Source: Kipferlia bialata
Taxonomy: Eukaryota
Direction: 5' to 3'
NCBI GenBank assembly: GCA_003568945.1
Contig: BDIP01000070.1
Span: 1-34,145 of the forward strand
Length of the DNA: 34,145 nucleotides
Of this stretch, positions 207 to 32,679 are shown in pieces. Each line of letters opens with the position of its first letter. Position 1 is the stretch's first letter. Made by a program: the position numbers and the translations under genes. The notes under the pieces are model-generated. The model saw nothing but the letters and a program-made list of their open reading frames with translations. It did no database searches and was not told where the DNA came from.

Positions 207-1799
207 GCTGACCTCCCCACATCATGCTCCAGCATGTCTGCCACCAAGGAGGGAGACACAGTGCACCTCACAGGTATTGGTATATCTGTATGTATAAGTG
301 TGCATATATATGCATATATACATATATTCATATGCAATTATGTGGGTATATACACTACTTAACTCAGGTGTTGTAACCTCTGGCGACCGTGTAACTAGGT
401 TCTCTCTCACGAAGGGTGCATGGACGCAGGAGGCCCTGCCTTACAAGGTATTATACATATATATACAAAGTGCACATGGTTTGATGTTAATGTTAATTCA
501 GTATGTTATGTATAATATGAATACTCTTTACGCATATATATATATATATCATATATATATATATATATCATATATGAATACTCTTTACGCATATATATAT
601 ATATATATATCATTATACGCACATATATATATATATCATAATGTATATAATGTATATATATACCCAATATGCCGTTAATGTACTTTTGTCTCTATGGGTA
701 CATTTCCACATACACGGCTGCCGTATACACGGAGTTCTGAGAGATAGAGCGGTGACATATGTATATTAATTATAAGTAGACTTTACTACATTTATTACTA
801 TTAAAATTTCTATATTCTTATGCTCTTGAACCCTTTCTTCTCACCTCTAGGCCCCCCACGTGACCTCTCTCTCTCTCTCCACTGGCACTCAGATACTGGT
901 AGGAAAGCTAGAGAGAGTGGCTGTGCCTAGCCGGGGAAGGAGAGTTCCAGGTATGGACTAAGACTTGTATTCATATTTATGTATACGGGATAATATTATT
1001 ATAGTGAAGGAGAGTTCGCGTTGCTACTGCAGCTCCAGGTATGGACTAAGACTTGTGTTCATATTAACGTATACGTGATATTAGAGTGCTTCTTTTTCAT
1101 CAATGTCCCGAAACGCAACTATCGCTAGTTTTCCATAATATTATTGATACTATTAGTATGGCCCTCGTAGAATCATTCATATTGTATTGTATGAATATGC
1201 TCTGCCTCATTATTGTTGTTGTGAATATGACACACCTCTCCTGATTTACACCATAGCTGCTGCCGCTGACCAGGGAGCTACTGGATTCGGTGCTGCCGCC
1301 GCCGCTACAGGTATATACATCTCTCCCTCTCTTATTAGTTAAACCAAGCTGCTCCCGTCGCTACAATACCACTCTCTGTCTCTGCATCGGACCATCCCTA
1401 TACTCTTTGTCCCAACCTTACTATATACTGCACTGCTCTATTCTATTTGTATACACTATATCAATTTACTGTGATATACTGACAATAGGCTTTGGAGCTG
1501 GCGTGCTCTCTCTCTCTCACACACATATTCTATCTATACATATATTTATTGTCTTCCTCAGCCTCTAACTATAGGCTTTGGAGCTGCCGCTGCCAAGCCC
1601 GGGGCCCCAGGTACGTGGATTGGTGTATATAGATAGAAATAGTATACCGACAGATAGATAGTTCGCGCTATCCCCCTACATTACACGTTGTGTTTACAGC
1701 ATCCCATACCTGATGTACTATCACACACCTTACCAATTAGCTGCCCCCGGTGCAAGAGGATTCGGAGGATTCGGTGCTGCCGGAACAGGTACACCTCAT

Positions 1800-1831
<32 letters not shown>

Positions 1832-1991
1832 GGACCGAGACTCGGTAGCTAAGTAGGACACCTCTGACTCCTGATTAACACTTTAGCTGCTGCCCCTGCC
1901 CCTGCCCCTGCCCCTGCCCCTGCCGGTGCGTTCGGTGGTTTCGGTGCCGCCCCAGCTGCTGCTGCTCCTGCAGGTATCTCTCCCTCTCTCC

Positions 1992-2023
<32 letters not shown>

Positions 2024-2574
2024 TATTATTATTATATACATTCTATCATCTTCTATCATTCATGTTTTGATCATGTTCTTATGGTTGTGTTTTACTCAAT
2101 TAGTGTCCCTCATGTAAAGCTGCTGCTCCTGCGTTTGGAGCTGCCCCAGCTGCCGCTGCTCCAGGTATCATTATCTCTCTCTCTCTCTCTTAAGTGATGT
2201 ATTCTCTCTGACATCAGTAGTTCTATAGTATCTATCATTAACGCTTGACACTATATCCTTCAGTGAGTAATACTATATTGGTTTCGTTCAAGTGCACATT
2301 CCTCATCCATGTCTTCTGTCGTTTCTCTTTTCTCTCACCTCACGGGGGCCCAACCTACCGTTACTGCTGCATGTATCTCAGTGAATCATTACTTCTGTCG
2401 TATGTACTATATCTCTCACTTTCAGCCTGGGGCGCCAAGCCTGCCGCTACTCCTAATGCTGCTCCAGCTACAACAGGTATATTATTCTAGTCTACACATC
2501 CCTCGTATTGTAATATCTTGTGTGTAGTATTACACTGCTTAATCGAAGTTGTACATCGTAACCATAGTTGTATG

Positions 2575-2610
<36 letters not shown>

Positions 2611-5600
2611 ACTGTAATTTTATCCTCACTCTCAGGTTTTGGTGCCGCTGCTGCACCAGCTGCCACAGGTGCATTCCATTACTATATCAATTAGTCAATA
2701 TATACTATACTGGTTTCGTTCGAGAACACGTTTCTTCACCACGTCTTTTGTCTTACTATCTTCTCTTATCTCAGTCAGGGGTGCCAAACCAGCCGCTCCC
2801 GCTGCTCCAGGTATACTTTATACAAGAGCAGTACTAACTGGAGAGCTAGAATAACATTGTAAGCTATTTCACTAGTATATTGAGTCTTCTTCCAATCTGT
2901 TTGAGACTCAGAGCTTTACTACATAATCCTTCCTGAGTTGTTGTAATTACCTATCATTAGTCATATGCAATGATTGGTATATACACAATGATCCTCACCC
3001 TCAGCTTGGGGTGCCGTAGCACCAGCTCCAGCTGCCACAGGTATACTATATCACTATATACATACAACCTCTTTCCAGCTATATACGTCTCCACTATTCT
3101 GCCGCGTTGTTGACGGGATACCATATCATTACGCGATACCACATCATTACGCGATACCATATCATTACCGTATGTGAGTATGTGCGTGTATAAATCTTAC
3201 TCTCAGCTTGGGGTGCCAAACCTGCCGCTCCCGCTGCTCCAGCTACCACCGGTATACTATTATACTCTACACATATATCGTATTGTAATATTTTGCGTCC
3301 GGTTTTTAACCGCTTAGTCGAAGTCGTCCCATAGTTGTATATGTATGCGTGCTCTTATTATCCTCACTCTCAGGTTTTGGTGCCGCTGCCGCAGCACCAG
3401 CTCCAGCTACCTCAGGTACCCTTATTCACTATACACAGCGTCCAGACCAATATAGATTTCCTCGTTTCCGAAGTAACATATTATCACATTAGCATGTGAA
3501 GTGTGTGTTGTTAGAGTATACATACATGATTCTCACTGTTAGCATGGGGCGCCAAGCCTGCCCCTTGGGCTCCCGCTTCTCCTTTCGCCAATACAGGTAA
3601 GCTCTTGACATACCTGCACGTATACTAATGGCTCTCGGTCATTCAATGTCTCAATCACTATCGTTGATTGAGCCAAATGGTATTAGCTTCCGACTATTCT
3701 GAGGACAATTTTTGCAGCCCGCATACTATGATTTGTTGCTCCTGTGCACACTCCCTCAATACCATTACTAGCCAGCTTCTGATATACCGTCGGCTGACTA
3801 TAGATATCAATGAGTCTCTCTTACTCACAAGATGTATATCAGTCTAATCCTAAATCCATACATCCATACTTCCTACTAAGACTGTCTAAGTATACGTATT
3901 TCTTTTACGTTTGACTATGATTCATTGTATGTGAATGACTCTAAGGGTTTGGTGCAGCCATAGCGGCACCTGCACCTGCCTATATTATTGACTGAAGTAT
4001 GTGTATATGGTAGTATACATAGTATACCTCACCATCAGCTTGGGGCGCCAAGCCTGCGGTTGCTGCAGCTCCAGCTACCTCAGGTACACTATATCACTCT
4101 TCACAGCATCCAGACCAATATTCATTTTCCTCCTTTCCGACTTAACGTATTATCATATTTAGCATGAAGTGTATTATATTTGAATATACATGCATGATTC
4201 TCACTGTTAGCATGGGGCGTCAAGCCTGCCGCTTCTCCTAAAGCTGCTCCAGCTACCACAGGTATAGTACTCTACTCGACACATCCTTCTAATTGTAATA
4301 TTGTATGTGCAGTATTCTAGCGCTTAGTCGAAGTCCATATGAAGTATATATCAATGTGTCTCTATTACTCACAATGTGTAAAGCGATCTACTCCTAAATA
4401 CATACATACGCTACCAACTAAGAAAACATACTTCTCTTACTTACGAATGACAATGAATGTGACTGTATTTGACTCCAAGGGTTTGGTGCAGCCATAGCGG
4501 CACCTGCACCATCCTCTACTAAGAAGGACACATACACCGACACCACAGAGGATGCCAGTGAGGCAGAGAGTGACACGCCAGTGGAGGACTCAGGTACCTA
4601 TATCTTCATATACTATATGTACTACACTTCTACTTCCTATGTAGTGTGTCAGTATCAGTATTATCATTATAGTTTCTCATCCCACAGGTGACGAGTCGGG
4701 CAAGGAACCAGCCGCCTTCAACTTCGGAGGTATAAGTCATCAATATGATCTCTATAATCTATCCATATATCCAACATGTACATTGGGCGTGATTCTCTTC
4801 AACTTCACAGGTGCACCTCTCGGATACTTTTACATGTTTGACCTTGATAGTGGGACGTATAAAGGTTGATTCTCTCTCATTTTTACTCAGAATAGGTTTC
4901 AAAGTGACTGGGGAGAGTGTGCTGGTACTACCTGCAGGCAAGAAGGCATGGACACCAACCAGGTAACGTGTGTCTATATGTGTGTCCCCATACAAATAGC
5001 ATCTGTACAAATAGTTATATCCATTCTCTCATTTCAAGGCGCCTCCCTGTCCACGTTGGCCCTGCCTCCTCATGTCTTCTGAACCCATACACGTTCATAG
5101 TGGTAGGTATCCAACGTACATATATATACCAGGCATATATACTCTAACTCCTCCAAACATATATAACGTAGAGACTACCATATTTGAGCACAATTGTATA
5201 TATCACACAATCGGCCATATCCATACTGAATGTATGATTACTTTGATATACACACACATCTATACTATCGACCTCTAGGCACCGACCACACTGTTATGGG
5301 TATATCCACTAAGGAGAGACAGAGAGTGCAGGCAGTCAAGGCAGCAGCGGTGGCAGAGAGAGAGAGAGACGAGCTGCTCTCCCTCTTCAAGGACCTGGCA
5401 CCTTCAGCTGACATCCCCTCTCTCTCCCCTGGGTTGCCATGGATAGCACCGGTCAAGGCAGCTCTATCAGAGGTAAATTGTGAACAAATAGAGATTATCC
5501 TTGCAGTGAGTTAATTTCACATCTCTCAAGAATACTCTGACCCCAAGGTTGCCATTCTCAAGGCGGCTAGTGGTCCCTGCCCTGAGTTTCTGTCCTTCAC

Positions 5601-8549
5601 TCCCTCTGACTCCGTTGCCCTGCAGTCTCTGATAGAGGAGGCAGAGGCATTTGACATGGCATCACTCGAGCCCCACATTGAGAGACTATCCAGGTAGATA
5701 TACATATATACGTACATATACATGCTTGTGTTGATGAGTGACGATGGTGAGGCATTTGACATGGCATCACTCGAGCCCCACATCGAGCGTCTGTCCAGGT
5801 AAAGAGTCTATATGTAGACATACACGTTTGTATATGCATCTATTGGAGTTGGTATACCCACACCTAATGCCCTTTGTGACTAAGTGGCGAAAGAAGCAAT
5901 ATGCTGGTGATGTCAGGTATCTACCCGTGGCAAAGAGGTTCGCCCCTAGGCTAGAGGCCCTCTCGAAGTTCCTAAAGGAGCACCCGGAGAGTGAGGTATA
6001 TCTGACATAGTTAGTATATATATATATATATTTATGTCATTTTGTGCGACTACGAGTGTCCGTGTGTGGCTATGTGGCCATAAGAACCTTAAAAACTGGC
6101 ATGTATCTTGTGATGGTGCTTCCAGTCCACTGACTCTCTCTCCCCCTCTAAAGATGTATGTATATTTCATTTGTGTCTGCATTCATGTCTCTCACATCAC
6201 CTTGTCTCTGGTGACGGTGAGTCTCTCTCTTTCTCTCTCTCTCTCTCCCTATTAATGTATATAGTCTATTATCTATCCTCAGCTTGTCTCTGGTGACTGT
6301 GAGTCTCTACTTCTTACCACTATCTATTTACATATATATTAGTAGTAATTGTATAAACATTCATGTATCTCACTCCAGCTTGTCTCAGGTGACTGTAAGT
6401 CTCTTCTGGAGACACTCACAGACCAGTTCAGTGCATTCAAGGTATGGTGCATTTGCAAAGGACCAATATATGGATAGTTTGTGTTGATGTGGCGCGTACT
6501 GTCTTCATATATGTGATGTACTCACAGGTCAGTTCAGTGCATTCAAGGTATGGTGCAATTATGATAACTATTCATTAGTATATATTTGTCAGAGGTAATT
6601 GTGACATCGTGCAATATACACTATATTAACAATTATATGAATTCTTAGACTTACCCATCAGGCCGACCTTGAGACTGTCACCGGTCTGGACTTTGACCCC
6701 CAAGAATCACTCGAAAAGATGCACTCTGCTGCTAAGCTACTCGACTCAATCAGTAGGTATAGAACTATGCGTATTCTTGTATGTACTATCTATCTATCTA
6801 TCTATTTTCCTATATTTCAGAGGTATGAGAGGACTGTGTGCATACATATATACTCAGATTGTGGTGTGTATAACCATGTACTGATATTTCTGATGTATAC
6901 GTATGTCCATATGGAGAGTTCACTTATGACTTAGGACCCGTGTCATCCCCCTCCCCCAGAACACACTGGCCCTGACCCTGGCCCACCAGAGAATGTACTT
7001 CCAGGTATAGAACACAGTAGTATTCAGGATGTTTACGTGAGAATGACTTCTCGGAGACAACTCCCAGGTATTGTGTGTATCACTATAGAGGACACAGTAA
7101 AACCTTTGCAATATACACACAACTGGTCTCATGCAGTTTTTACTATCAGTTTCACAGTCCGGTACAAGTAGTCTAACTCAGGTCAAGGGATTCAACGGCG
7201 GCGTTGCGACACTGTTCGGAGTGGCTGGACCAGTCATAGACAGCCAGGTATGGCGTACATTTATATACATATATGGTTATACATATATGGGTATGGAGTA
7301 TCACATATGTATATATCTCACACTCAGCCTGACAGTGAGGCATGTGTGTACATGCACATACATTTGTGGATATTTAGTATCATGTATGCATATATATATA
7401 TCATCGCAGCCTGCCATTGAGGTTCCTGAGTAGTATTCTGTCACTCATTCATATATACGTATGTGGTAGTAAAGTCTACAGTACATATATATCTCTCTAA
7501 CCCTCAGCCGGCCATTGCGGCATGCATGCAAGGACTGGAGGGTGTGATGACACCTGACACACAGGAGTGTGACTGGGTAACTGAGCAGGCAGAAAAGGTA
7601 TATAGAATATTTAACTAATTTCATATCCAATTATTCATATTCAGCAGGCAGAGAAGGTATATAGTATACATATCTCTACCTAATATCTACCTATTCCATT
7701 ATACTAGTATATTAGTGTATTTATATAGACTCAGGGTGACTGAGCAGGCAGAGAAGGTGTGTGTACATGTGTTGATACATGATATTGTTCATATATGAAT
7801 AGAGCTCTGCTGGACTCATAAGTTTCCAATGTCTAACCGATGTATGATATTTCTTATGTGTCTAATCCCAGCTCCTGGAGGCCCTTGCCCTTCTGGCACC
7901 CAGGCAGGCTGAGGCCAGGACACTGCTCGCTGAGGTATTCATGGTAGTGATATCATCGCTATAGTACCTTTCTCAATAATATATGTACTATTACCATACA
8001 GCAAAACGCTTAGTGTACTGTAATGCCATACACAGGCATCGGCACACTGTTGGAGTTCACAGTACAATGTGATATCTCCCTCCTAACTCCAGTGCTGTGT
8101 CATCAAGAATGTATCCGAGGATGGGGACATTGAGATCTAGATGCCTATATAATATGTGTATATATAGTGTACAACCCCCTACTAACTCTAGTTCACTGCC
8201 ATCAACACAGTGCCCGAGGATGGCGACATTGAGTATGCAGCATATGAGGTGACACGGGTGGAGACACTGCTCAAGAACCCAAGGTAGAATCATATATTAC
8301 ATTGGTCATATGTCAATCTCTCACCCTTAGACAGTCTGCCGAGGCCCATCTCAGGCCCATCTCTCTGAATCACTGCTTGGAATTCAAGTATCCTTAGCAG
8401 AATAGCATATAGTATAGTGTATATGTACAATGTATCTCACAGACAGGCTGTCCGCCCAGCAGAAGGCCCTTCTGTCTGATGAGCTGTTGGTCAACAGGCA
8501 GGCACTGCTGGACATGGAGAGAAGTCAGGTATACGGATGTGTCTCTATG

Positions 8550-8584
<35 letters not shown>

Positions 8585-9439
8585 CTCCCTGTGTATATAT
8601 TGAGTTGTTGGTCAACACACAGGCACTGCTCGATATGGAGAGAAGCCAGGTATATGCATGCATATATGTCTATATATATGTCAGCAATGTTATGTTGGTT
8701 TATGTCCTTGACTGCCAGGCTGACTTCACCCAGTACTATATGTATAGTGTCACATGTACCAGGACTCGTGTGTAGATATATATGCATGGGATCTATCTAT
8801 ATGTATTCATATATGATCCTGTATGATATATACACTGGCGTCTCACTGCCAGGCTGACTTCACCCGTCTCAGTGAGAAGCTGACACCCTTCAGGGAGTTC
8901 CCTGAGGTATTGGTGTTCTAAGAGCCCTCATATACATGCAAGTTACCTTTATATACTCATATGGCTGTGTACTACCACAGGTAGTGACAGCTATTCACAA
9001 GACAGAGCATACTATCACTATTGTATATATAGACAATTAACTCACTCGCATATGACTGTATTCTAACCACAGGTTGTGACAGCACTTGACAAGACAGACA
9101 CTATCTGTATACAATCATTACTGCATACTTTAAATATACACTCGCTTATGACTGTATTCTAACCACAGGTTGTAGCAGCACTTGACAAGACAGAGCCTGA
9201 GACAGAGGGTGACGCAGTGGTGACACCTGAGCAGGTCAACGGCATGACAGGTAAATAGTTATATTTGGCCTTAACTCATACTTGTGAGGAGTCAAGTCTA
9301 TAATAATCATAAATGTGCATAACATAGTTTCTTGTATTATTCGACCATAGTAGAAGTACTAGGAATAGTGTTGCTGACGATAGGCATGATGGTGAAGGGA
9401 GAGAGGACTCCAGAGGCAGAGATATGTGAAGTTGCTTGA
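207..9439 (+). CDS. Multi-exon gene (5' end outside window): kelch-like beta-propeller blades + Ala/Pro-rich FG/WG-repeat tract + acidic linker + helical C-terminal region; possibly nucleoporin-like
   Basis: Hand-spliced GT-AG exons keep one frame. 207-273, 368-447 and 851-950 give ADLPTSCSSMSATKEGDTVHLTGVVTSGDRVTRFSLTKGAWTQEALPYKAPHVTSLSLSTGTQILVG. Repeat exons run 1257-4729. 4896-4962 and 5039-5106 give GFKVTGESVLVLPAGKKAWTPTRRLPVHVGPASSCLLNPYTFIVVG. Further exons at 5279-5472, 5548-5693, 5917-5995 and onward lead to a last exon ending ...EAEICEVA-TGA at 9437-9439. The span includes introns, and the product call is inference. Confidence 0.7.
1257..4729 (+). repeat. Array of about 16 symmetric phase 1-1 mini-exons, most encoding one FG or WG repeat unit
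   Basis: Exons 1257-1310, 1575-1610 (GFGAAAAKPGAP), 1741-1788 (AAPGARGFGGFGAAGT), 1887-1973, 2120-2164, 2426-2476 (AWGAKPAATPNAAPATT), 2636-2668, 2775-2810, 3005-3040, 3207-3251, 3374-3415, 3543-3596, 4039-4083, 4211-4261, 4480-4593 and 4688-4729. All lengths are multiples of 3 and all are bounded by AG/GT. Confidence 0.85.
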
Positions 9440-9725
9440 ATGCCTGAAGATGTATGATCCTGGGTTGTGGTACCAATAGAGAGAGATATTCTGGACCTGG
9501 ATAGATCCATGCAAGAGTCCATAGGATCATCACACTTTTTCATATTTACGATCGCTTCAAGTCACACAAGAAAAACAATCAACCCGTCTGGTCTATTCAC
9601 TCCCGGCACGATAAATATATATGTAACAGTGAGTATATCAACTCACACACACAATGTTGGGTGTAAAGAAACAAAACAGGGACCCAACACAACTGACACA
9701 AACACCTCTCTCTCTCTCTCTCTCT

Positions 9726-10802
9726 CTAGTAGAATGATGGCTTGACCTGGTAGGGCTTCTTGGCACTCTTCTTGGCAGCACCCTGGTGGTGAGAACAAAA
9801 ATGAAATAACTATGCATCTTCTACAAACACATATATGTATAGAGTAGATACCTTCTTCTTGCCCTTCTTGTTCTTGGGCCTGACAAAGTACTGGACAGCA
9901 TATANNNNNNNNNNNNNNNNNNNNNNNNNNNNNNNNNNNNNNNNNNNNNNNNNNNNNNNNNNNNNNNNNNNNNNNNNNNNNNNNNNNNNNNNNNNNNNNN
10001 NNNNNNNATTACATATACATTATTTATAAGACACAAACCTTCTTCTTGCCCTTCTTGTTCTTAGGTCTGACAAAGTACTGGGCGGCATTGTGCTTGGCAT
10101 CGGCAATCTCACTGGAGTTAGACCCTTCTTAGACAATACACATATGTGTGTGGGAATACTATATACATACAGAGATATATGTGTGTGAACATACCCGCTC
10201 TTCCTCATTGTCCACTCTCTGCTCGCTCTCTGTATATTGATCTATCTTTTTGTATATATATCACGAAGCACATCTAGATATTCGGATAATAATTTTGTTA
10301 ACACTAATCATACCCGCTCTTCCTGCGTGTCCACTCCCTGCTCCTGTCATCTGTCAGCAACAGCTCGCCAAACATGTCCTAAGGAGTGAGAAGAACAGTA
10401 AATATGAATATAATTGTACCAATACAATTGTATCAATATACAATAGTGTAAATTGATCAATATACACACCTTGGACTGCTCCTTCTTAGTCTTCCTCTGG
10501 TGGTATCTGTCGGCAGACACCTGGGGGTGAGTAACACTCATGTACTCTAGAGTGAATATATATCAAACACAATGGTGGTAGGATATTGCATATACACCAC
10601 AGTACACTCACGTTGTATGTGCCAAACACTCCCCGCTGTGGGAGGTTCTTCCAGTCAGACTTCTTGTAGTGTCTGGGGTTAAGGTATACATATAGAGAGA
10701 GAGAAAGAGAGAAAGAGAGAGAGAGAGAGGGAGAGAGGGAAGTTCTTCCAGTCAGTCTTCTAGTAGTGCCTGGGGGTAGATACTGAGAGAGATGTGGGGG
10801 GG

Positions 10803-10835
<33 letters not shown>

Positions 10836-12200
10836 TTACCTCGCTGGGTCAATGTATGTCCTCAGGGCCAGCATCTGGAGCTCTCTCTGGGGGTCAGGGG
10901 AGGACACACAGAGATATGTGTATAGAGTACACTGGATAAACTTGATACTCAATACAAGGATGATTCATATATCCCAATCTATATACACAGCTTAGTGTCT
11001 GTCTGGCACACTATCCCCCCCCCCCCTCCCCCTCCCTCCATATATAGAAATGTACTCTCTCTATATACCATCTATCTATATACCTTCGTCTTGTCTGTCT
11101 GATCCAGACTGGGGCACTGACTCCACATGCCTGTCTCTCTCTCTCTATGTATATTATCGCTCTCTCTCGCTCTATGTATATAATTACTAAATATCTCTGA
11201 ATATATACCTTCGTCTTGTCTGTCTGATCCAGACTGGGGCACTGGCTCTACATGCCTCTCTCTCTATCTACATATGTATATATACTCCCTATACATCTAT
11301 GTATATATGTATACATATATACCTTCGTCTTGTCTGTCTGGTCCAGACTGGGGCACTGACTCCACTTGGCTATCCTCTTCTGCCTCTCCTCGGCCTCCCT
11401 AGAGACAGGGGCGGCATTGACATCTAAGGTGAGATATGTACAGTCATATATATATTGAAGGAGAGGGGGAGAGAGAGAGAGAGAGAGTCTCTCCTCTGTC
11501 TCCCTAGAGACAGGGGCGGCATTCACGTCTAGAGGTAAGAGAGGGAGAGATACATAGAGGGGAGAGCGATAGAGAGCGAGAGAGAGGTCTATCCCTCGAG
11601 AGAGGGGAGGCATTGACGTCTAAGGTGAGATGAATTCACACACACATACATATATATATGTGGGTGTATATATGTATATATAGAGAGAGACATGGGCTAC
11701 AATGACATCTAAGGTGAGATGAATAAAGAAAGAAAGAGAGAGAGAGCCACCCATGGAGACAGGAGTCATATTGACATCTGGGTGTCAATAGGGAGAAGAG
11801 AGTTGAAATAGGTATGGCAGAGAGAAGAGACATAAACATCCGGCTGGGGGTTGACATCAAGAAACACATATTGCAGAGAGATGAGAGGAGGGAGGGGGGG
11901 GGGGGTATACATAGGATAGTGCTGAACTATATACTCACATACCTGTGCCCATTGGGAGAGCCTTCTCCAGTGCATATCTGGCCTATAGTATAGAATGGCA
12001 AGAGTAGAGTACAATATAGTGTAGTAGAGTATAGTATACTAATTATAATATATATATATATATATGTACCTGTCCCCATAGGCAATGCCTTCTCCAGCGC
12101 CTGTCTGGCCTCCTCAGACAGTACCCTGGCCTTGGTGGACTCATCTGCCTCCCCCTCACTGTCACTCTCCACATAGTCCTCAGGCTTCACATCGAAGTAG
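9726..12200 (-). CDS. FCF2: Fcf2-domain pre-rRNA processing protein (FCF2/DNTTIP2 family), first exon missing
   Basis: Eight phase-compatible exons: 12200-12070, 11423-11323, 10886-10840, 10672-10612, 10520-10470, 10378-10314, 10111-10039, 9782-9726 (TAG). Spliced product: ...KWSQCPSLDQTDKTKRELQMLALRTYIDPARHYKKSDWKNLPQRGVFGTYNVSADRYHQRKTKKEQSKDMFGELLLTDDRSREWTRRKSGEIADAK...KKGKKK...FY*. This fits the Fcf2 pattern as I recall it: W..P......K.dL..L..R..lDP.RhYKK....lP.....GT......y..R..KKe......ELL. Confidence 0.88.
9905..10007. other. Assembly gap (N run) within an echo-containing intron; further gaps at 20300-20338 and 32628-32639
   Basis: N runs seen directly. All three abut echo copies. 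Confidence 0.98.
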
Positions 12201-12250
12201 CTGGGGTAAGAGGAATATACATAGGATATGTGGATAGAAAGAGTGACTGT

Positions 12251-12295
12251 GGGGAGAGGGAGGGGGGGGGGTGGGGGGGGGGGGGGGGGGGGGGG
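12251..12295. other. Poly-G tract between two divergent, apparently 5'-truncated genes
   Basis: About 45 nt of almost pure G; flanking exons at 12200 (-) and 12355 (+) both begin at splice acceptors in phase 2. Confidence 0.8.
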
Positions 12296-12354
12296 ATGTT
12301 AATACAAGAGATTATAACTTTCTCAACATATGTATAACCTCTGTCTCACTGTAG

Positions 12355-17966: not shown

Positions 17967-18009
<43 letters not shown>

Positions 18010-21000
18010 CTGGCCAAGGCACAGGCTGAGGGAGAGGAGGGCAAGAAGGCAGAGGTATGAGTGCAGTACCAGCATTTGAACATATATATCTTTTGCACCA
18101 ATACCAGCCCGAGCCCCTGTTTGGGGTGTACAGTGCCACCCTGCACTACTCTAGTTCACTGTATATATAGAAACTCTATTATTGCATATATATATATATA
18201 TATAAGTATGTTCTAATGTATCAGCCCGAGCCCCTGTTTGGGGTGTACAGTGCCACCCTGCACTGCTTCCCACCAGCACTCACAGCACCCGACCTGGAGA
18301 TGAACAGGTGTGTATGTGTGTGTGTAGTAATGTATAGAGAAATGTATATATATACACATGTGATATAGATCTGAGTGCATATATGTGTATTATCGAGTAT
18401 TCATTCACTCACTATCAGGCTACACTCCATCTACATGCCAGTGGCCCTGACTTCTGGCGAGCAGATGCTGTACAGACTCAACCTGACAAGGGGGGAGAGA
18501 GCGGGAGAGGGAGAGGGAGAGGCCTGTCTCACCCTGAGGAGGGTGTCCAACATACCATCCCCAGTCACACTGAGGTATGTAGTGATATATGTATATATTC
18601 ATTATTCCACAGAGGTACCATTGGTACATTTCTATATAGATGTATCTCACACATCTCACACATTTTTCACAAACACTCTGGTATCCCATGCGCGATACCT
18701 TCATGTACTGAATATACCACTACATGTAGTTGTGTGAATGTCTATACTAACCCCAGACCCACCCGGCCTGTCCTCGATATGTATGACATTATAGTACCAT
18801 TGCGACTATATAGTATATGATATATATATATAGCACTCATTGTATAAATTCATTCTACTAACCCCAGACCCACCCGCCCTGTCATTGATTTGTATGGTAA
18901 TAGTGTCTAAATATCAGTATCGAGTATACTTCCACATGGATACTGACCCCCCAGACCCACCCGCCCTGTCATTGATCTCTATGGCCTTGAGATTGTCAGC
19001 AGGAAGGGGGAGGGCAAGATGGCAGGTACGACTTGTACGATATTGGTATATATTATTATATGACTTGTACGATATTAGTAGATTTTTATATATTATTATT
19101 ACATTATTATTGTATACAAGGTGGAGGACACTACAATAATGTCTCTACGTGAATATGATTATTTTGTGAGCAGGAAGGGGGAGGGCAAGACTACAGGTAT
19201 GCAGTGTATATTGAGGTTGGATGACACTGTACATTCGTCTTATTCCAGACCGCTCCATCACCGACCGTGTTGGCATGTGTGTCTGGTCCACCCACCCATC
19301 CTATGCTGGGCCCATACAGCCCAGAGAGGCCAAGCCTGTGCACATACCTGTGCCTGGACAGATGGTGAGTGCATATATTCACGTATAGTTTGTATATGGT
19401 ACTATGTGCCAGGACAGGTGGTGTGTATGGTATATTTACTTGGAACGATGACTCATCTCTCTTTCTCTCTCTCTCTCTCTCTGATCCCAGGTTGTGGAGG
19501 AGGACCTCCTCCCACCTTCGGAGGTCTCTCCCTCTCTCTATCTATATATATATGTATATCTGTATTAATATATATATGTATATCCCTTAACCCAGGTTGT
19601 TGAGGAGGACCTCCCCCCTGCCCAGGCCTTTGACTTCTCCGGAGGATACCTTTGTATTGGAAAGGCATTTGCAGCAATCATGCCCAAGGTGGGGACATTA
19701 ATTAATATTATATATATATATATATTACATTGGATTTATATAATATATACAGTGAATAAGCATCCGAGGCCTCAATCATACCCAATTTGGGGAAATTCCA
19801 GGAATAGAAGTATATTTTTCATTTGTAATTTGCAGCAATGTACTATTACTATCAGTGGTATCTATTGTATAGAGCCACACCTCCTCTGCCGAGGCTGAAC
19901 CAACTGAGCACCCCCTACTGTATACACACATATACTAGTTTAATACACAGTATACTATATAATATACATATTCTTATATGTAGGGCCACACCTCCTCTGC
20001 CGAGGCTGACCCCACTGAGCACCCCCTAGCCTATATTTTTTACTAGTATATACAGTATTATAGTATATTATAGTAAATAGATATATATATTCTCATGTCC
20101 TAGGGCCACACCTCCTCTGCCGAGGCCGACCCCACTGAGCACCCATTACTATATATATACCAGTGTAGTCTATACAGTATATGTACTGTATATATATATA
20201 CTACATATTCTTATATGTAGGGCCACACCTCCTCTGCCGAGGCCGACCCCACTGAGCACCCATCACTATATATATACCAGTGTAGTCTATACAGTATACN
20301 NNNNNNNNNNNNNNNNNNNNNNNNNNNNNNNNNNNNNNAGTCTATACAGTATACTATATATATATATATTCTTATATGTAGGGACATACCTCCTCTGCCG
20401 AGGCTGACCCCACTGAGCACCCATTGCTATATATATACCAGTGTAGTCTATACAGTATATGTACTATATGTATATATATACTCATTAATAGGGTCACACC
20501 TCCTCTGCCGAGGCTGACCCCACTGAGCACCCATTACTATACACACACATATGCTAGTATAGTATATACTAGTATACTATATATATATACATATTCCTCA
20601 TACCTAGGGACATACCTCCTCTGCCGAGGCCGACCCCACTGAGCACCCCCTGTTGAAGAAGGCAATCCCAGGGTCACTGTTCCTACTCTCCAGTGCTGCC
20701 GCAGGTCTATATGTACATTATAGTAATGGTATACATATATTAATAGAGAGTGACAGAGAGAGATAGTAAGAGAGAGATAGTACCAGGGTCAATGTTCCTT
20801 CTATCCAGTGCTGCAGCAGGTACTGTAAATGTATAATATGTAATAATTGATGACAATAGTCAGTATTCATTTCGACCAACCCCAGGCGACATTGCTCCAG
20901 CTAGGGGCGCGAAGACAGGTAATTCATTGTCAACTCATGTATACATAACTACCAGTGTACTAATGCAACGTGTTCAATACTACTATTTCTATTAATTCAT

Positions 21001-24000
21001 CCTATCCACATAGTTCTGAGACATCCGTACTGACCCCATGTGCCTCCTACCTCCCCGTCAGCACCCTGCTAGCCCCCACCCTACTGGGAGAACCAGCTGT
21101 GTACAGGATAGGGAGACCCACATCACAGGTATTGTTCATCTATATATCCACCTATCCATCTATATATACACCTCGCTCTCTGATACTGATACTGAGACTG
21201 GTAGGGAGACCCACATCTCAGGTACTTCCCATTCCCTAATAACATGTCCCTAATATGTAACACCACATATATGCATATACTGAGTATACTGTAAGAGAGT
21301 GTTGATATCTAACCTCAGTCCAATGTCCCCATGGTCGACTGCCCCCCCATGACCTCTGTCACAGTGGCACATGGGTTTGGATCAAGGCTGATTAGCCCAG
21401 GGGCACTGCCAGGTATAGAGTATATGTATGCATTTGCGCACATATTGGGAACATATATTCTTGTATGGAAACACCAAGGAGCCGTTTGATTATAGGTGTA
21501 TATACAAGTATGGTTGTCATTTGTATCCACTAGTCCGTAGTCCTCTCACAACCAGTCATGTTTGCTGGCAATGGCTCCTCCAAGGATGCCCTGGACGTAG
21601 TGGCCACCCTGGACGTTGGCACAGTGGTCAAGAGCAGCAAGGACAAAGATGGTATGTGGTTTATATATGAGTCCCTTCACTATAACACCGTACATGTAGA
21701 TATGTGTTACAGAGACTATATATGTATATATGATATATGTATACTAATGGTAGGCCGCAACGTCACCTTGGTATGGTATATGTATATAGTATGTATACTA
21801 ATTGTAGGCCGCAACCTCCCTGTGGGTGTGTACAAGTGCATGGACACCTACCCCATATACATATATACATATATACAGTGTCTACAATATATTATAGATT
21901 AGACAATGTACTAATGTACTAATGGTAGGTCGTAATCTCCCTGTTGGTGTGTACAAGTGCATGGACACCTACCCCATATATATTGTAGAGATAATATATA
22001 TTGTAGAATTATATATACAGATAATACCGACACTGATAGCAGGACGCGATCTCCCTGTGGGTGTGTACAAGTGCATGGACACCTACCCCAGTGCCCTTGC
22101 CCTGTCCTCACCCGGTCCATGCATGGCACAGCACACTATAATGCTTCCGCCAGGTGTGTATTTATATATATATATATATATATATGAATATATCTTACTA
22201 TGTGTACATGTACTGCATTATGCTGCCACCAGGTGTGTGCTGTGATATCACATCACCCATTATATCATACCCTTTCTTGTCTCGCTATGTGTATACTATG
22301 TACTATATAATGTTCTCACCCCAGGTGTCTCTGCCAGGGCCATGGCCTATCACAAGTCAACTGACTCCATTCTGCTGGCTGCATACACCACTAGGTATGG
22401 ATAGTATATATACATATATATACATACATACATATATATGAATCTTATGTGACAAGTTATCCTGCTGGCTGCATACACCACGAGGTATTACGAATTTGTA
22501 TTATATACACATACGTATACAATAGTACTAGGAAGTATGATTGTATGCAGCATGGAGTGTTCAACCAAATTCTTTGTATTGACCATTGTATTCATAATCC
22601 CCATCTCACCCTGCAGGATGGAGGTCAGAGAGCCAAGGTCCATACATATACACATTTGTATATATATGTATAGCAATGTTAATATTGTCAACAGTGTACT
22701 GTATAGTGACATATGTATATGTATAAACACACATCTCACCCTGCAGGATGGAGGTCAGAGAGCCCAGGTCAACTGCCAAGGACAACACCAGAGCCGCAGA
22801 CGCCGCTAGGTACTACACTCATATATATATATGGCTAGGTACTATACTCAAATGTGTATATATATATATATATATAAATATAGTCTACATGTATAGTATT
22901 GCAAACAAGCTGAGAGCAGCAGACGCCGCTAGGTATGTTCTTAACGAGATGCATACACTATTCGTAAACTTTCGCTCCAAGTTTTCGTTGAAATTTCTCT
23001 GTCTTCCCTTTTGAATCGTTCTCAGTCCATCCCTGACCCTCTCTATTATTGGTTGTGAATTCATTCAAATCTCTCACCCCAGTCAGGCTGCCGAGGTTGC
23101 ACAGGAGGCCAGGAATATGGGAATGTAAGTGCATTGGCAGTCACTCCATATTTATACGTAGAGAGATCCTTTCCTGCGCAATGGTTAATTCATTAGCTAT
23201 TCTATGACTGTAATTCATCTATCTCATCAGACCTTCTCCCCTGATGCATATAGTTTTGCATGTATGTACGCGCGTGTGTGTGTGATATGTGTTCTTACCC
23301 CTTTGGGAGCCCTCCGAGGCCTTAGCCCGTATACCTATATATATTCGTGAAACAGCATATGTACACATATATATTCGTTCAATGTCTGTATGATAATAAT
23401 CTTACCCTTCAGGGAGCCCTCCGAGGCCCTTGCCCGTATGCCTATTGGTATATATATACACAAGTGAAAAACATTTTGAACTGAGTGTATATAATTGTTC
23501 TCAACCCTTAGGGAGCCCTCTGAGGCCTTAGCCCGTATACCTATATATATTCGTGTAACAACAAATATGTACACGTATATATGTATCGAATGTATGTATT
23601 ATATTAGCCTTACCCTTCAGGGAGCCCTCCGAGGCCCTGGCCCGTATGCCCAAGGTGGAGAGGCCACCCAGTCCACCCCTGCACAGGACAAAGTGAGTGA
23701 TAGCATGCTGTTGGCATAGATGTTGTATTGATTGAAGACCTGTTACAGTACACCCCCTCACCCCCAGTGCAGAGACATATCAATATCATATTCAGTATAC
23801 TAGAGTATATACTAAAGATAATACAGTACCTATAGTACCCCCTCACCCCCAGTGCCGAGAAGGAGTCAGACCCCGAGGCACTGCCCATGTATGCAAGGTG
23901 AGAACCCAGAAGTATACTATATACACTAATACTCTGTAGTGATAACTGTATATGTATATTGGTATATGTATATGTATATACAATTGGGAAGGAGTCAGAC

Positions 24001-25272
24001 CCCGAGGCACTGCCCATGTATGCAAGGTATGGATAATACACGTCATATGTATATATATACTATATATATACTCTAAATATACAGTCAGTTTACCTACTAT
24101 GTCTGTGTAATTATGAGGGAGACAGACCCCGAGGCGCTGTCCGTGTACTCGAGAGCATATGTGTATTGTACTATTACATGATTTGTATATATCCGGTTAT
24201 ACATGTTGCATCTTTGGTGTATGTCTCACCTTAGGGAGCAGCACCGCCTGATCCTGATCTCTGCCTCGACAGGAGAGGTCATGGACTCACACATGATGAG
24301 GTACTTTATATACTGGCATTATGTGTATAGTATGCTAGATAGTGTACACATGCTCTCTGCCTAACCTCCCTAGGGCTCATATTTCTTCCATCTCACCCTC
24401 AGGTCTGCCTATGGCGAGGAGGTCACGTGCATTGCCTCTGGCAATGTCAGAGCGGCATTCCCACAGAGACTGGGTACGATTAGTATACATATCATTGTTG
24501 ATACCCCTACACATATATACACATGTTCATAGATATCAGAGCGGCATTCCCACAGAGACTCGGTACGATGAAGTATCAGTGACTATCACTATGTATTGCT
24601 TGGATGGTGTATCCATCTCTCATCCCCCAGGTGCCCATTGGCGCCCTGCCGCTGACATGCTGGATGCATTTGGAAGGGTTGATAGGAGGTAAGAGTCAAT
24701 ATGGTATACTGCATAGCATGTATATTTACACACACACATATATACACAAATTCATATACGTGTATACATTATGTATATGTCCTATATATCATATGCCACT
24801 GACATGCTGGATGCAGTTGGAAGGGTCAACAGGAGGTATGGTATCACCAAGTTGTCAACATACACAACACTCTCTAGGATTGACCGTATTCACTTCTACA
24901 TGATTGAGTATTTAATAGTCTTTGTAGTATATGATCTTCATACTCCTAGGAACCGATCCGGCACTGAGGTCGATGGCCTCTATATTATATTGCTAACAGA
25001 TATGTACTATATATTGTACTCGCTTAGGAACCGTGCAGGCACTGAGGCCGGTGCCATGTTGAGACTATACTACATATATGTATATATATATATATATAAA
25101 TATATATATGTATTAGTACTATTATATACAATTATTATATACTGTTTTCTTACTCCTAGAAACCGAGCTGGCACTGAGGCCGGTGCCATGCTGAGACTGG
25201 CCTTCCTGGGTGGTAACAGACTGACAGACCAGTGGAAGGAGGTGCTGGTGGTAGGAACTGCATTGGTACAAG
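12355..25272 (+). CDS. CPSF1: CPSF160/Cft1-like (DDB1/SF3B3/CPSF1 superfamily) multi-propeller protein, partial; N-terminus and most of the C-terminal propeller not found
   Basis: About 35-40 spliced exons give motifs in the same order as I recall for CPSF160: YVTKEPTLGMASPYRDVVVQITP (about 14950-15050), LCVLLSTRNGSVLAYDLSD (16848-16955), IYMPVALTSGEQMLYRL (about 18420-18575), FDFSGGYLCIG (about 19595-19688), ARAMAYHKSTDSILLAAYTT (about 22325-22393), EQHRLILISASTGEVMDS (about 24235-24300), EEVTCIAS (about 24403-24472) and KEVLVVGTALVQG (25160-25272). Orthology versus DDB1/SF3B3 is not computed. Confidence 0.65.
13885..14200 (+). repeat. Exon 3' end + donor echoes (three copies after the complete exon)
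   Basis: ACTCTACAGCACAGCNAAGACAANNCCNAG|GTA ends the complete exon at 13924 and recurs ending near 14011, 14101 and 14195. Confidence 0.9.
19870..20650 (+). repeat. Tandem array (about 110-120 bp period) of acceptor + exon-5' echoes ending in the complete exon at 20608
   Basis: Core AG|GGCCACACCTCCTCTGCCGAGGCYGACCCCACTGAGCACCC at about 19872, 19984, 20104, 20221, 20382 and 20492, each running into TA-rich filler. Only the copy at 20608 continues to a donor (about 20704). An N-gap lies inside the array. Confidence 0.92.
23300..23660 (+). repeat. Acceptor + exon-5' echoes (three copies before the complete exon at 23621)
   Basis: GGAGCCCTCYGAGGCCYTNGCCCGTATRCC at about 23306, 23413, 23512 and 23621. 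Confidence 0.9.
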
Positions 25273-29354: not shown

Positions 29355-31653
29355 CAATATTTATCATACATATATTGTATATTATAGTATATACACCTAA
29401 ATATTGGCATATAGTATTTACCATCTTGTATACTGCGTTTCATGTATCATCTTATATATATATTCATATATATATCATCTCATATATATCTTCTTGTGTA
29501 TATCCTCTTGTGTTTACCATCTCATATATATCACCTCATATATATCATCTTATATATATCATATTATATACATCACCTTATATATATCACCTCATTCATA
29601 TCATCTTATGTTCCCCATCTTATGGTCACCATCCTATATACACCACCCAATATACCTCACCTCATGTATACCACCCTATATACCCCACCTCATGTATACC
29701 ATCCTATATACCCCACCTTATGTACACCATCTCATACCCCCCCTTATGTCAGGAAGGAGGCGGCAGCACAACGCATCGAGGCTGCTGAGACAGCCCAGCG
29801 GCTGAGAGGTCTGTTGGATGGACACCTGGAGGACCTCGAGGCCACCACCCGGAGGCTGTTAGAGGTATGGTGGGGTGACGGTGGGTGTGATATGTAGTTA
29901 TAGGATGATAGCAACATGGATATCTATCTATATATGTAGTATAATGAATGTTACATATAGTATATACATGTCTATATGTATACGTATAGTATACAAATCA
30001 TATCTAGAACTATATCCCGTATATATGTAAATGTCACATATTCAGACATTGAGAGTGCACGTGAGTATGCATATGTCAGTCTGTGTGTGCATATCCCCCT
30101 ATCTCTGCTGATTCCAGTCGGTTGACAGTGCCCCAGGCTGGTCTGACAGGCTAGAGCTGATCAAGCAGGTATCGGCTGTTGTCCAATATCTGTTGACACT
30201 ATATTTATATATATATATATGTATATATATATACATATACATATACATATATGCAATGACTATATAGTATAGTACTGATGGGTCCCCTCATGAACCAGGC
30301 CTCCCTTGAGATGGAAGGGGGTGCCATCCACAGGGTACTGGGCCACATCAAGGACACCGCTGGGCAGATGGGTACGGGTATGCTTCTAGTGACTATGTAA
30401 GTACATACAATGCATGACCGTTTGACCCCAGGCGAGGTGTCCCCTGATCCCGAGGCCACGGCCACTGACATAGTACGGCAGTTTGCGGACTCTCTCGCAG
30501 ACAGGTACCCACAATACTCCTACATAAGTTGACCTGTACTGTTACTCTGTGGATATTCAGACAGAGAAGATATTCCATATTGTGTAAGACTCTGCCCACA
30601 GTTATATATATATACTCCGCATACAATCACATTTATACATATATACCACTATATCTATCTCATTATTACCTTCCCCCACCCCATAGGAAGGGAGAGGCTC
30701 AGAGAGAGAGAGAGGCAGAGGCAGAGAGAGAGGCAGAGGCAAAGAAGCAGGCAGCAGAAGAGAGGCGTGCTAAGGCGAAGAGGGACAGGCTTGATAGACA
30801 CGTCGCAAAGGTATCAGTATCAGTATCAGTATTAGTATCATACTGATAGACACGTGTGAAAGGTGGGCAGGGTGGTGTATATCACATATACCATGCCGTA
30901 TCTCCCCTCTTGCCGTCTCTCACCCTTCAGACCACTGCCTGGTGTGATAGCACCATGGGCTTTCTCAACAAGGCAGAGGAGTGCCACCAGGACTACCACG
31001 TCACCAGAGACAGCGGGAGGGAGGTGTCTGGGTTCCATGCCGCCATCGCCGACATTGACACCCTGGCCCAGGTACCTGTTGTATCAGTATCAGTATCAGT
31101 ACACATAGTGAGTACATGCTAGTGTGACCTGATGTGGCCAACGTATCAGTATCACTATCAGTATTGACACCCTGGCCCAGGTACCTGCTTCATGATATAT
31201 ATATATATATATATTTATATATAACCGACCGAACTCATCTCTCTAGGAAGGGACTGAGCTCAAGGCCGGGGCCACCCAGATTGACCAGTGGCTCCAGCAG
31301 GATGGCTCTGAGGAGCTCGACAGAGAGGGCTCTGCACAGACAGAGGTGCGGCCCCGTCTAACCTACGCGATAGTCTAAATCTGCTCTTGTTATAGTGTAA
31401 TGCTATGTCGTCATTATAATGCCAGTGGTCAGTCCGAGACATACTTGGGTGCTACGGGGATGCCTGTGATCGGCTGAGGTCTAGACATGACGAGCTGACC
31501 ATCACACTCCAGGCCCTCATGGAGTCCTTCTCTAAGGTGAGTGGTTGGTTGGTCTCTCACTACACTGTCTGACTACCACACTATTGTTCTGGTACACTCC
31601 ACACACATATACATGTATATGGCTATTAATAATCATATGGTGAATATATATAT

Positions 31654-31684
<31 letters not shown>

Positions 31685-32679
31685 CCATCTTTGCTGACAC
31701 CCAGGGCGAAAAGGCTGTCAAGGACTGTGAGGGCAGTATCGGGTCTGTAGAGGACTGGTGCCAGGTATGTATGGGACCATATACACGCTGCTCTCTCTGC
31801 CTATCCCCCATATTTCTCTTTACTCAGCACTCACATACCTGTAATCCATACCCATTTATATATATACTACATACATTCCTCGCATGCAGTTTGCTATGAC
31901 GTAATTCTCCCCTCAGGTCCATATCGCCTCGATACCTCGGAATTTTGGGGGCACTAAGGTTGTAGATGGCAAGGCCGGCCAGTATCAGAAGGCCCTCAAG
32001 ATGTGGACAGGTATCTGGTATATACGGTACCATGCTATTATTCAGTAAACTTGTCCAGGGGTGTATGTTTGGTTACTGTTTCGTTCTCTGTGTTTAGATG
32101 CAGAGTCAAGTTACAGTTCATTGAATGAACATTTCTAGTATGTCGGTACCAGTGTTTCACTCTCCCTGACCCAAGAATGTCTAGAGGAGGCCGACAGCGC
32201 TCAAGAGGCTGTTCACCCCAGAGATGACATCAGTACAGCACGGTAAGTAGTGATATGTGACAGTAATCAGAGTCAATAGTATATGTAGAGCACATATACA
32301 TGGTATATGGGCACCCACTCACCACAGGGTGTGTCGTCTCCAGGAGTACTGTACCAAGAAGATGGCTGAGTGTAAGGCTGCCCAGAGGGCACTAGAGGAC
32401 GGCACTGACCCCACCTGCAAGATACGTACACCCACAGTGCTCGCTGGGGGGTCCAGTCTACTGCGCCCACCTGCCACAGGTATTACCCATATATACCTGT
32501 CACATGCATTATATATATATATATATATACATATACACATATATATTTATATACATATATATACACACATATATATATACACAGCACCCTGTTACAGGTA
32601 TTACTCATATATACCTGTCACAGACACNNNNNNNNNNNNCACCCTGTTACAGGTATTACTCATATATACCTGTCACAGA

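Follow-up and report, generated by a model that had tools for sequence, protein, structure and literature searches.

The window, that is, the whole stretch of 34,145 nt analysed here (positions 1 to 34,145 of contig BDIP01000070.1, assembly GCA_003568945.1, Kipferlia bialata), was modelled as three genes with 95 exons and 92 introns. One gene (4480-9439) was modelled from RNA joints and two by eye, and RNA-checked exons belong to the 4480-9439 gene only. The 5′ exons encode GFG/WG-rich repeats, which we take to be reminiscent of FG nucleoporins. At 1257-4261, whole exons are duplicated together with their intron flanks, at periods of up to 832 nt, and encode GFG/WG alanine-proline repeats; a loose end of the RNA contig described below ties the exon 4211-4261 to the 4480-9439 gene. 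A protein search with exon 5548-5691 (longer targets) gave no match at E ≤ 1, Pfam returned no families for 14 single exons, and the Atlas comparison of exon 5281-5472 reached 0.89 at best and gave no lead. On the minus strand at 9700-12200, a protein spliced by eye presumably resembles the rRNA-processing factor Fcf2/DNTTIP2. Two divergent genes lie 154 nt apart (12201-12354), each beginning at an acceptor with no first exon visible, and a long G run lies between them. This arrangement is likely a misjoin, and trans-splicing may be an alternative account.

The last 50 nt of the exon 5548-5693 recur in the following intron. Such partial copies of exon ends are called echoes below. Direct comparison of 5644-5693 with 5749-5798 gave four differing bases in 50 (5679/5784, 5683/5788, 5685/5790 and 5688/5793). 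From exon to echo they change ATT to ATC (Ile), AGA to CGT (Arg) and CTA to CTG (Leu) and leave the protein unchanged (EAFDMASLEPHIERLS in both copies). Each copy ends in AG followed by GT, and all four silent differences lie within 15 nt of the donor. The description in the first-pass annotation, four silent differences in 50 nt clustered beside the donor, was therefore exact. The reading frame of the exon was set by the RNA joints and the open spliced ORF, independently of the differences between the copies. For a neutral echo beside a constrained exon, four differences with the protein kept have P = 0.012-0.028, and the position of all four in the last 15 of 48 sites has P = 0.007; both are post hoc values for a case singled out from 73, and thus the weight of the argument is placed on the window-wide counts. 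The flank after the echo shows borderline likeness to the 55-nt spacer (score 4.8, null 95th percentile 5.0).

A single spliced RNA contig (run X2; 2030 nt, depth 9.5) joins 5693 to 5917 using the first copy, with no other letters, which makes the echo at 5749-5798 intronic. The RNA nature of X2 is a guess, and the contig does skip GT..AG introns; its further joints are 5995 to 6379 and 6441 to 6662. The junction CGTCTGTCCAG-GTATCTACCC, for which the first-pass annotation had suggested a transcript search, was not seen in this one contig, at a depth at which a minor isoform could escape. Only the first copy is seen in mRNA, on the evidence of one contig, and contigs drop rare forms. The record coordinates of the contig leave no space for the other echoes of the 4480-9439 gene. 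Use of the echo donor with the spacer retained would add 105 nt in frame with an immediate TAG, and in-frame read-through into the echo was ruled out by this TAG. The sole in-register route into 5749-5798 leads from a GC donor after 5646 to an acceptor before 5752, which scores lower than all 92 modelled acceptors and reads GAG, found at none of the 92. The exon's last 50 nt are thus truly repeated in tandem at 5749-5798, and this second copy carries its own donor and is spliced out in one RNA contig. Further along the same gene, the echoes at 6283 and 6520 together tile the exon 6379-6441 (29 + 28 of 63 nt). A degenerate partial copy of exon 8447-8528, located 111 nt upstream at 8331-8380 and overlooked by the anchored scan, is probably an old acceptor echo.

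Table 1. Coordinates of the exon 5548-5693, its echo and the other echoes of the window.
Position	Strand	Feature	Evidence
5548..5693	+	Coding exon, 146 nt, last 50 nt echoed	RNA contig piece 5546-5690 with no other letters; joints 5472 to 5548 and 5693 to 5917; open spliced ORF
5644..5693	+	First copy, the end with which the exon is spliced (...CAC ATT GAG AGA CTA TCC AG)	Sequence comparison, RNA contig
5694..5748	+	Used donor GT and 55-nt spacer; in-frame reading opens with a TAG stop	GT..AG RNA joint; donor score 9.2; translation
5749..5798	+	Echo, copy 2 of the exon end, four silent differences, intronic in the RNA contig	Sequence comparison, RNA contig
5799..5916	+	Echo donor GT, not used, with the 118 nt of intron that lead to the acceptor	Donor score 10.1, as strong as the used donor
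5917..5995	+	Next exon	RNA joints
6201..6311	+	Acceptor-side echoes of exon 6379-6441 at 6201 (acceptor lost) and 6283	Echo scan; RNA joint 5995 to 6379 passes over both
6520..6547	+	Donor-side echo of exon 6379-6441	Echo scan; RNA joint 6441 to 6662
7643..9098	+	Six more echoes of the same gene, ends or starts 7656, 7756, 8093, 8649, 8981 and 9073	Echo scan; no room in the RNA contig coordinates
10195..31180	.	Another 63 echoes, spread over the minus-strand gene and the long plus-strand gene	Echo scan on by-eye exon models, without RNA check

The assembly at this locus was compared with unitigs of run X1, which may be the assembly's own source; contigs and unitigs were used rather than raw reads. 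The unitigs 4481-5673, 5649-5778, 5754-6215 and 6259-8535 have depths of 448, 417, 427 and 446, respectively, so that 5649-5778 stands among flanking depths of 448, 427, 446 and 458. This unitig leaves a shared 35-mer in the first copy and re-enters it in the second, forming a loop at single-copy depth, and no other letters are listed in X1 unitigs across 4400-9300. The first-pass annotation had named a second haplotype misplaced in tandem by the assembler as what would undo its reading. A full-depth loop was found and not the half-depth bubble of a collapsed or misplaced haplotype, which argues against such a misassembly, as do the stops and lost splice sites present in echoes. X1 may itself underlie the assembly and N gaps lie inside some echo arrays; even so, we consider an assembly artefact hardly credible. 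The N gaps seen in the window (9905-10007, 20300-20338 and 32628-32639) all lie inside echo arrays.

All counts given here come from this single 34-kb window. The anchored scan found 73 echoes in 46 families, and 39 of the 90 gap-free modelled introns contained at least one. The repeat-coding exons at 1257-4261, the echo that straddles the N gap near 9850-9901, and any copy shorter than 14 nt or below score 11 were left out before counting. Mismatched exon/intron pairs, used as a control, gave 0 of 586 donor-side matches, so the echoes were not detected by chance. Relative to the exon they match, donor halves are found on the downstream side and acceptor halves on the upstream side; scans of the reverse placement gave 2 matches in 184, both long donor echoes viewed from the opposite end. 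Each echo spans 14-53 nt of exon (longest ungapped echo 53 nt), about half of the adjacent exon (echo/exon length interquartile 0.35-0.52), plus one splice site, and the median step is 107 nt. The inner echo end falls close to the exon midpoint (median offset 5.5 nt), except in the longest exons, among them the host exon of 5749-5798, with an offset of 23 nt. By the ungapped measure, at most 62% of the exon is covered in 44 of 46 families, and echo lengths within a family spread by no more than 3 nt in 12 of 18 families. A single indel, of 6 nt and in frame, occurs among the 73 echoes. Introns with an echo have a median length of 258 nt versus 133 nt for those without. Both kinds of echoes occur together in six introns, and in all six the donor echoes precede the acceptor echoes, an order in which no false exon forms. 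Where an exon has echoes upstream as well as downstream (nine exons), the two halves together tile it (mean gap 11 nt; rho 0.90, permutation p < 0.001) and never overlap by more than 2 nt. One split copy around an intact exon was not favoured as an explanation: the residual lengths show no anticorrelation (r = +0.34, p = 0.37), and two independent events ending near the midpoint therefore fit equally.

Several structures of the window should be mentioned separately. Donor echoes at 17998-18054 and 23988-24026 cover most of their exon but carry no acceptor, and the first contains the only indel of the 73. Six acceptor echoes lie ahead of one exon at 19873-20651, several with near-identical flanks and with an N gap within the array, which is a recent cis amplification of uncertain copy number. 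The by-eye junction 20918-21014 is out of phase, which may reflect an unseen micro-exon, a different splice site or an error in the sequence, and frames there were therefore set exon by exon. AAG acceptors number 3 of 92, and an intronic tandem array at 29414-29735 has a 14-nt period and a unit that drifts along the array. The median exon (73 nt, 58% GC) and the median echo-free intron (133 nt; introns 34% GC) add up to about 200 nt, near one nucleosome repeat.

The differences between exons and echoes are concentrated at silent sites (pS 146.2/594, pN 107.8/1894, with AGA/CGT counted as half a replacement). With one vote per family, 4-fold sites differ at 88/272 and 0-fold sites at 85/1008, a ratio of 0.26 (family bootstrap 0.20-0.34), where 0.5 is expected for a neutral echo beside a fully constrained exon. 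Between echoes, which are untranslated in the gene models and within a family are not independent, the corresponding values are 36/115 and 34/402, with a ratio of 0.27 (0.18-0.39) against an expectation of 1 between neutral echoes (p = 6e-9). The low ratio persists within G/C sites and within A/T sites separately, stands at 0.23 without the 5749-5798 echo, and is retained in the RNA-checked gene alone (8/35 vs. 10/151). It is weaker in single-echo families (0.31; p = 0.024 against 0.5), and shifted reading frames give 2.6 and 3.2. Differences at third positions also depend on distance from the splice site (42/126 within 18 nt vs. 17/147 beyond, p = 1.5e-5), the relation that the first-pass annotation had suggested checking, while first and second positions show no gradient (16/252 near vs. 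14/298 far). The third-position gradient is present on each side in echoes of at least 36 nt, also without the 5749-5798 echo; in acceptor echoes of at least 30 nt it has p = 0.07, and the acceptor-side 4-fold gradient disappears once the first 3 nt are dropped (12/57 vs. 13/49). Adenine-specific mutagenesis as the source of the differences was ruled out by the similar 4-fold rates over all bases (A 0.29, C 0.21, G 0.30, T 0.22).

The order within stacks of echoes separates two layers of change. In 18 stacks, 0-fold differences rise from 15/427 in inner to 32/407 in outer echoes (p = 0.007), 4-fold differences are equal (32/122 and 29/117), and the splice site is lost in 0/18 inner vs. 3/18 outer echoes. 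Replacement changes run from G/C to A/T in the echo (58:23), whereas silent changes have no direction (56:53; p = 0.007). A directionless and equal silent layer together with an outward-rising, A/T-ward replacement layer points to silent differences that likely built up at a time when both versions were being translated, with decay setting in after retirement. The echoes contain 6 stops in 879 codons and have lost 5 of 73 splice sites, the 68 retained comparing with 65 expected under neutral decay. Intron flanks after donor echoes are at background identity (0.283 vs. 0.294); the flank has diverged even in four echoes that match the exon without a difference over 18-39 nt. Flanks are clearly related in 6/28 donor and 5/18 acceptor echoes, which indicates that some copies are plain cis duplicates. 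The proposal of the first-pass annotation that echo sequence is constrained at the protein level thus stands as to a real and general signature; the evidence points to past and not present constraint, so that the signature is likely historical, and the single echo that had been offered as independent support lends little.

Based on the above results, we suggest with a probability of about 0.55 that the echo at 5749-5798, like probably the echoes in general, once served as the exon end of a different working allele and was retired when recombination displaced it. This reading calls for very high allelic divergence. We infer that, close to splice sites, roughly one silent site in four would differ between alleles of this species, which would also have little intron sequence in common; where allelic introns no longer match, pairing would be confined to exons. 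An offset exchange or one-sided repair could then set one allele's exon end, with 55-70 nt of its intron, ahead of the half exon and intron of the other allele. Splicing would take the inner copy, probably since the sites bracketing the shortest exon win, and the outer copy, no longer translated, would decay. Such a copy would be tolerated since the inner site is chosen despite an echo donor of equal strength (10.1 vs. 9.2), and since the donor-first order described above yields no false exon. Unequal exchange of an echo with another allele's working end would add a fresh inner echo at the same mid-exon junction and so build stacks, which matches the near-equal echo lengths within families. 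A cis copy in a purely clonal line would be neutral from birth, presumably with a ratio not below 0.5, and exchange between different working copies would therefore be needed. It is our guess that the midpoint junction and the step of about 107 nt come from exon-limited pairing or exon-centred nucleosomes; an Okazaki-flap origin of the echoes is likewise a guess, and the literature searched on it gave nothing related. Against this reading, no second allele or relative was found in X1 on 4400-9300, which has no other letters, or in metagenomes, where a degenerate pattern of the echoed peptide gave 0 matches and a generic intron motif gave 6 unrelated loci, none with near-tandem repeats or the intron style of the window. 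According to the available part of PMC8516963, canonical end joining is absent in metamonads, which rely on homologous repair; if the host is a metamonad, this would favour one-sided repair or an alternative end-joining route. More tentatively, and at somewhat below even odds, this eukaryote may renew exon ends through exon-only allele pairing and file the displaced half exons in order of retirement. Introns would then consist largely of such units, and one genome would hold a dated record of past alleles and of hidden sex.

Alternatively, the donor could have been a second gene copy, either a paralog since lost or a homeolog that stems from hybridisation or genome doubling, with the same retirement and decay. 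This would yield the silent bias and the foreign flanks without extreme within-species diversity, but stacks of 3-6 echoes with several unrelated flanks would need several donors, and no second copy at 90% identity or more was seen on 4400-9300; we regard it as rather unlikely. If the echoes were instead cis tandem duplicates, neutral from birth, they would be snapshots of exon ends with unusually fast-changing silent sites and flanking introns. The simple tandem geometry, with 3′ halves downstream and 5′ halves upstream, and the minority of flanks that are still alike agree with this. However, a ratio of at least 0.5 is predicted unless silent sites exceed neutral DNA several-fold, and outer 4-fold divergence should be about 0.47, compared with 0.25 observed (p = 5e-7, or P = 0.015 when both rates are treated as uncertain). 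This explanation is disfavoured and unlikely.

Selection acting now on echoes in use as alternative half exons, with 5749-5798 reached through the 5646 GC donor and the 5752 acceptor, could also keep the protein. Splicing along this path would keep the frame and leave the protein as it is. In 19/28 donors and 13/18 acceptors the echo splice site equals or exceeds the score of the real one, and steps are divisible by 3 in 21/46 (p = 0.055). We judge present-day use decidedly improbable all the same, given that the RNA contig skips the echoes of the 4480-9439 gene, that the 5752 acceptor is as poor as described above, and that in-register pairs are not more frequent than expected at random, with 3 of 46 families for GT (expected 7.1) and 16 for GT/GC (expected 21.0). 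Furthermore, stops and lost sites are present, the retention of splice sites fits neutral decay, and spacers are no more open when in frame (9/21 vs. 8/25). Highly error-prone repair synthesis of the inner copy off the sister chromatid, with selection sparing only silent versions, would leave differences that become denser away from the mid-exon junction and end in a scrambled intron flank. It would require an error of about 30% per base with almost no indels (1/73), and the differences have no base-specific bias; we know of no polymerase with such properties, and this origin is very improbable.

The intron style of the window seems in keeping with Kipferlia bialata, an intron-rich fornicate. 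Its genome has 124,912 GU-AG introns according to the available part of PMC5874029, in the main text of which the words "duplicat", "heterozyg" and "alternative splic" are absent; the available part of PMC6679479 contains nothing on duplicates. No report of pervasive half-exon stacks with allele-like divergence was found in the literature searched, which included few subscription papers and no supplements. If the echoes are retired alleles, one assembly would give allele divergence, the order of events and between-strain recombination with no population sample, and the echoes would be a large source of intron sequence, as the median lengths given above suggest. Whatever their origin, they are natural competition tests of splice-site choice. 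In short introns the nearer splice site is often expected to win, and here an equally strong donor nearer the acceptor is passed over, so that exon versus intron definition is directly testable in Kipferlia bialata. Gene predictors and assemblers are liable to be misled by them as well.

The echoes are a real, window-wide feature and a variant form of internal gene duplication. In tandem-duplication intron gain, as described in the available part of PMC3443670, a short intragenic tandem duplication likewise doubles splice-like sites and the protein can stay the same; there, the duplication takes in an exonic AGGT, and the stretch from one copy to the other is spliced as a new intron. The unit of the echoes, by contrast, crosses a boundary that was already present, splicing uses no new intron, and the differences are allele-like. 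In register, 5749-5798 offers only AG followed by GC, GT pairs being rarer than expected over the families, and the RNA contig (one contig, depth 9.5) joins 5693 to 5917 and not the two copies. The available part of bioRxiv 10.1101/2020.06.23.168138 describes offset meiotic breaks on different chromatids or homologs whose end joining gives direct tandem duplications, possibly inter-homolog, as well as inserts of 15-349 bp from break sites; in mouse these are rare, arise mostly without ATM and lie at hotspots. The echoes are also direct tandem copies with one non-homologous junction, but unlike the mouse duplications so described they form a fixed pattern in about four of ten introns and are tied to exon midpoints.

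Tandem exon duplication with mutually exclusive splicing also produces neighbouring exon-like copies with silent-biased divergence. Purifying selection between copies is seen here as well (ratios of 0.26 and 0.27), but the echoes are half exons with one splice site each instead of an acceptor and a donor per copy, are skipped in the RNA contig, and are decaying. In diversity-generating retroelements, differences fall at the adenines of one copy, a pattern that the echoes do not have. Decoy or cryptic strong splice sites that lie unused inside introns are known from exon definition. Each echo differs from such decoys in that it copies the neighbouring real site plus 14-53 nt of its exon.
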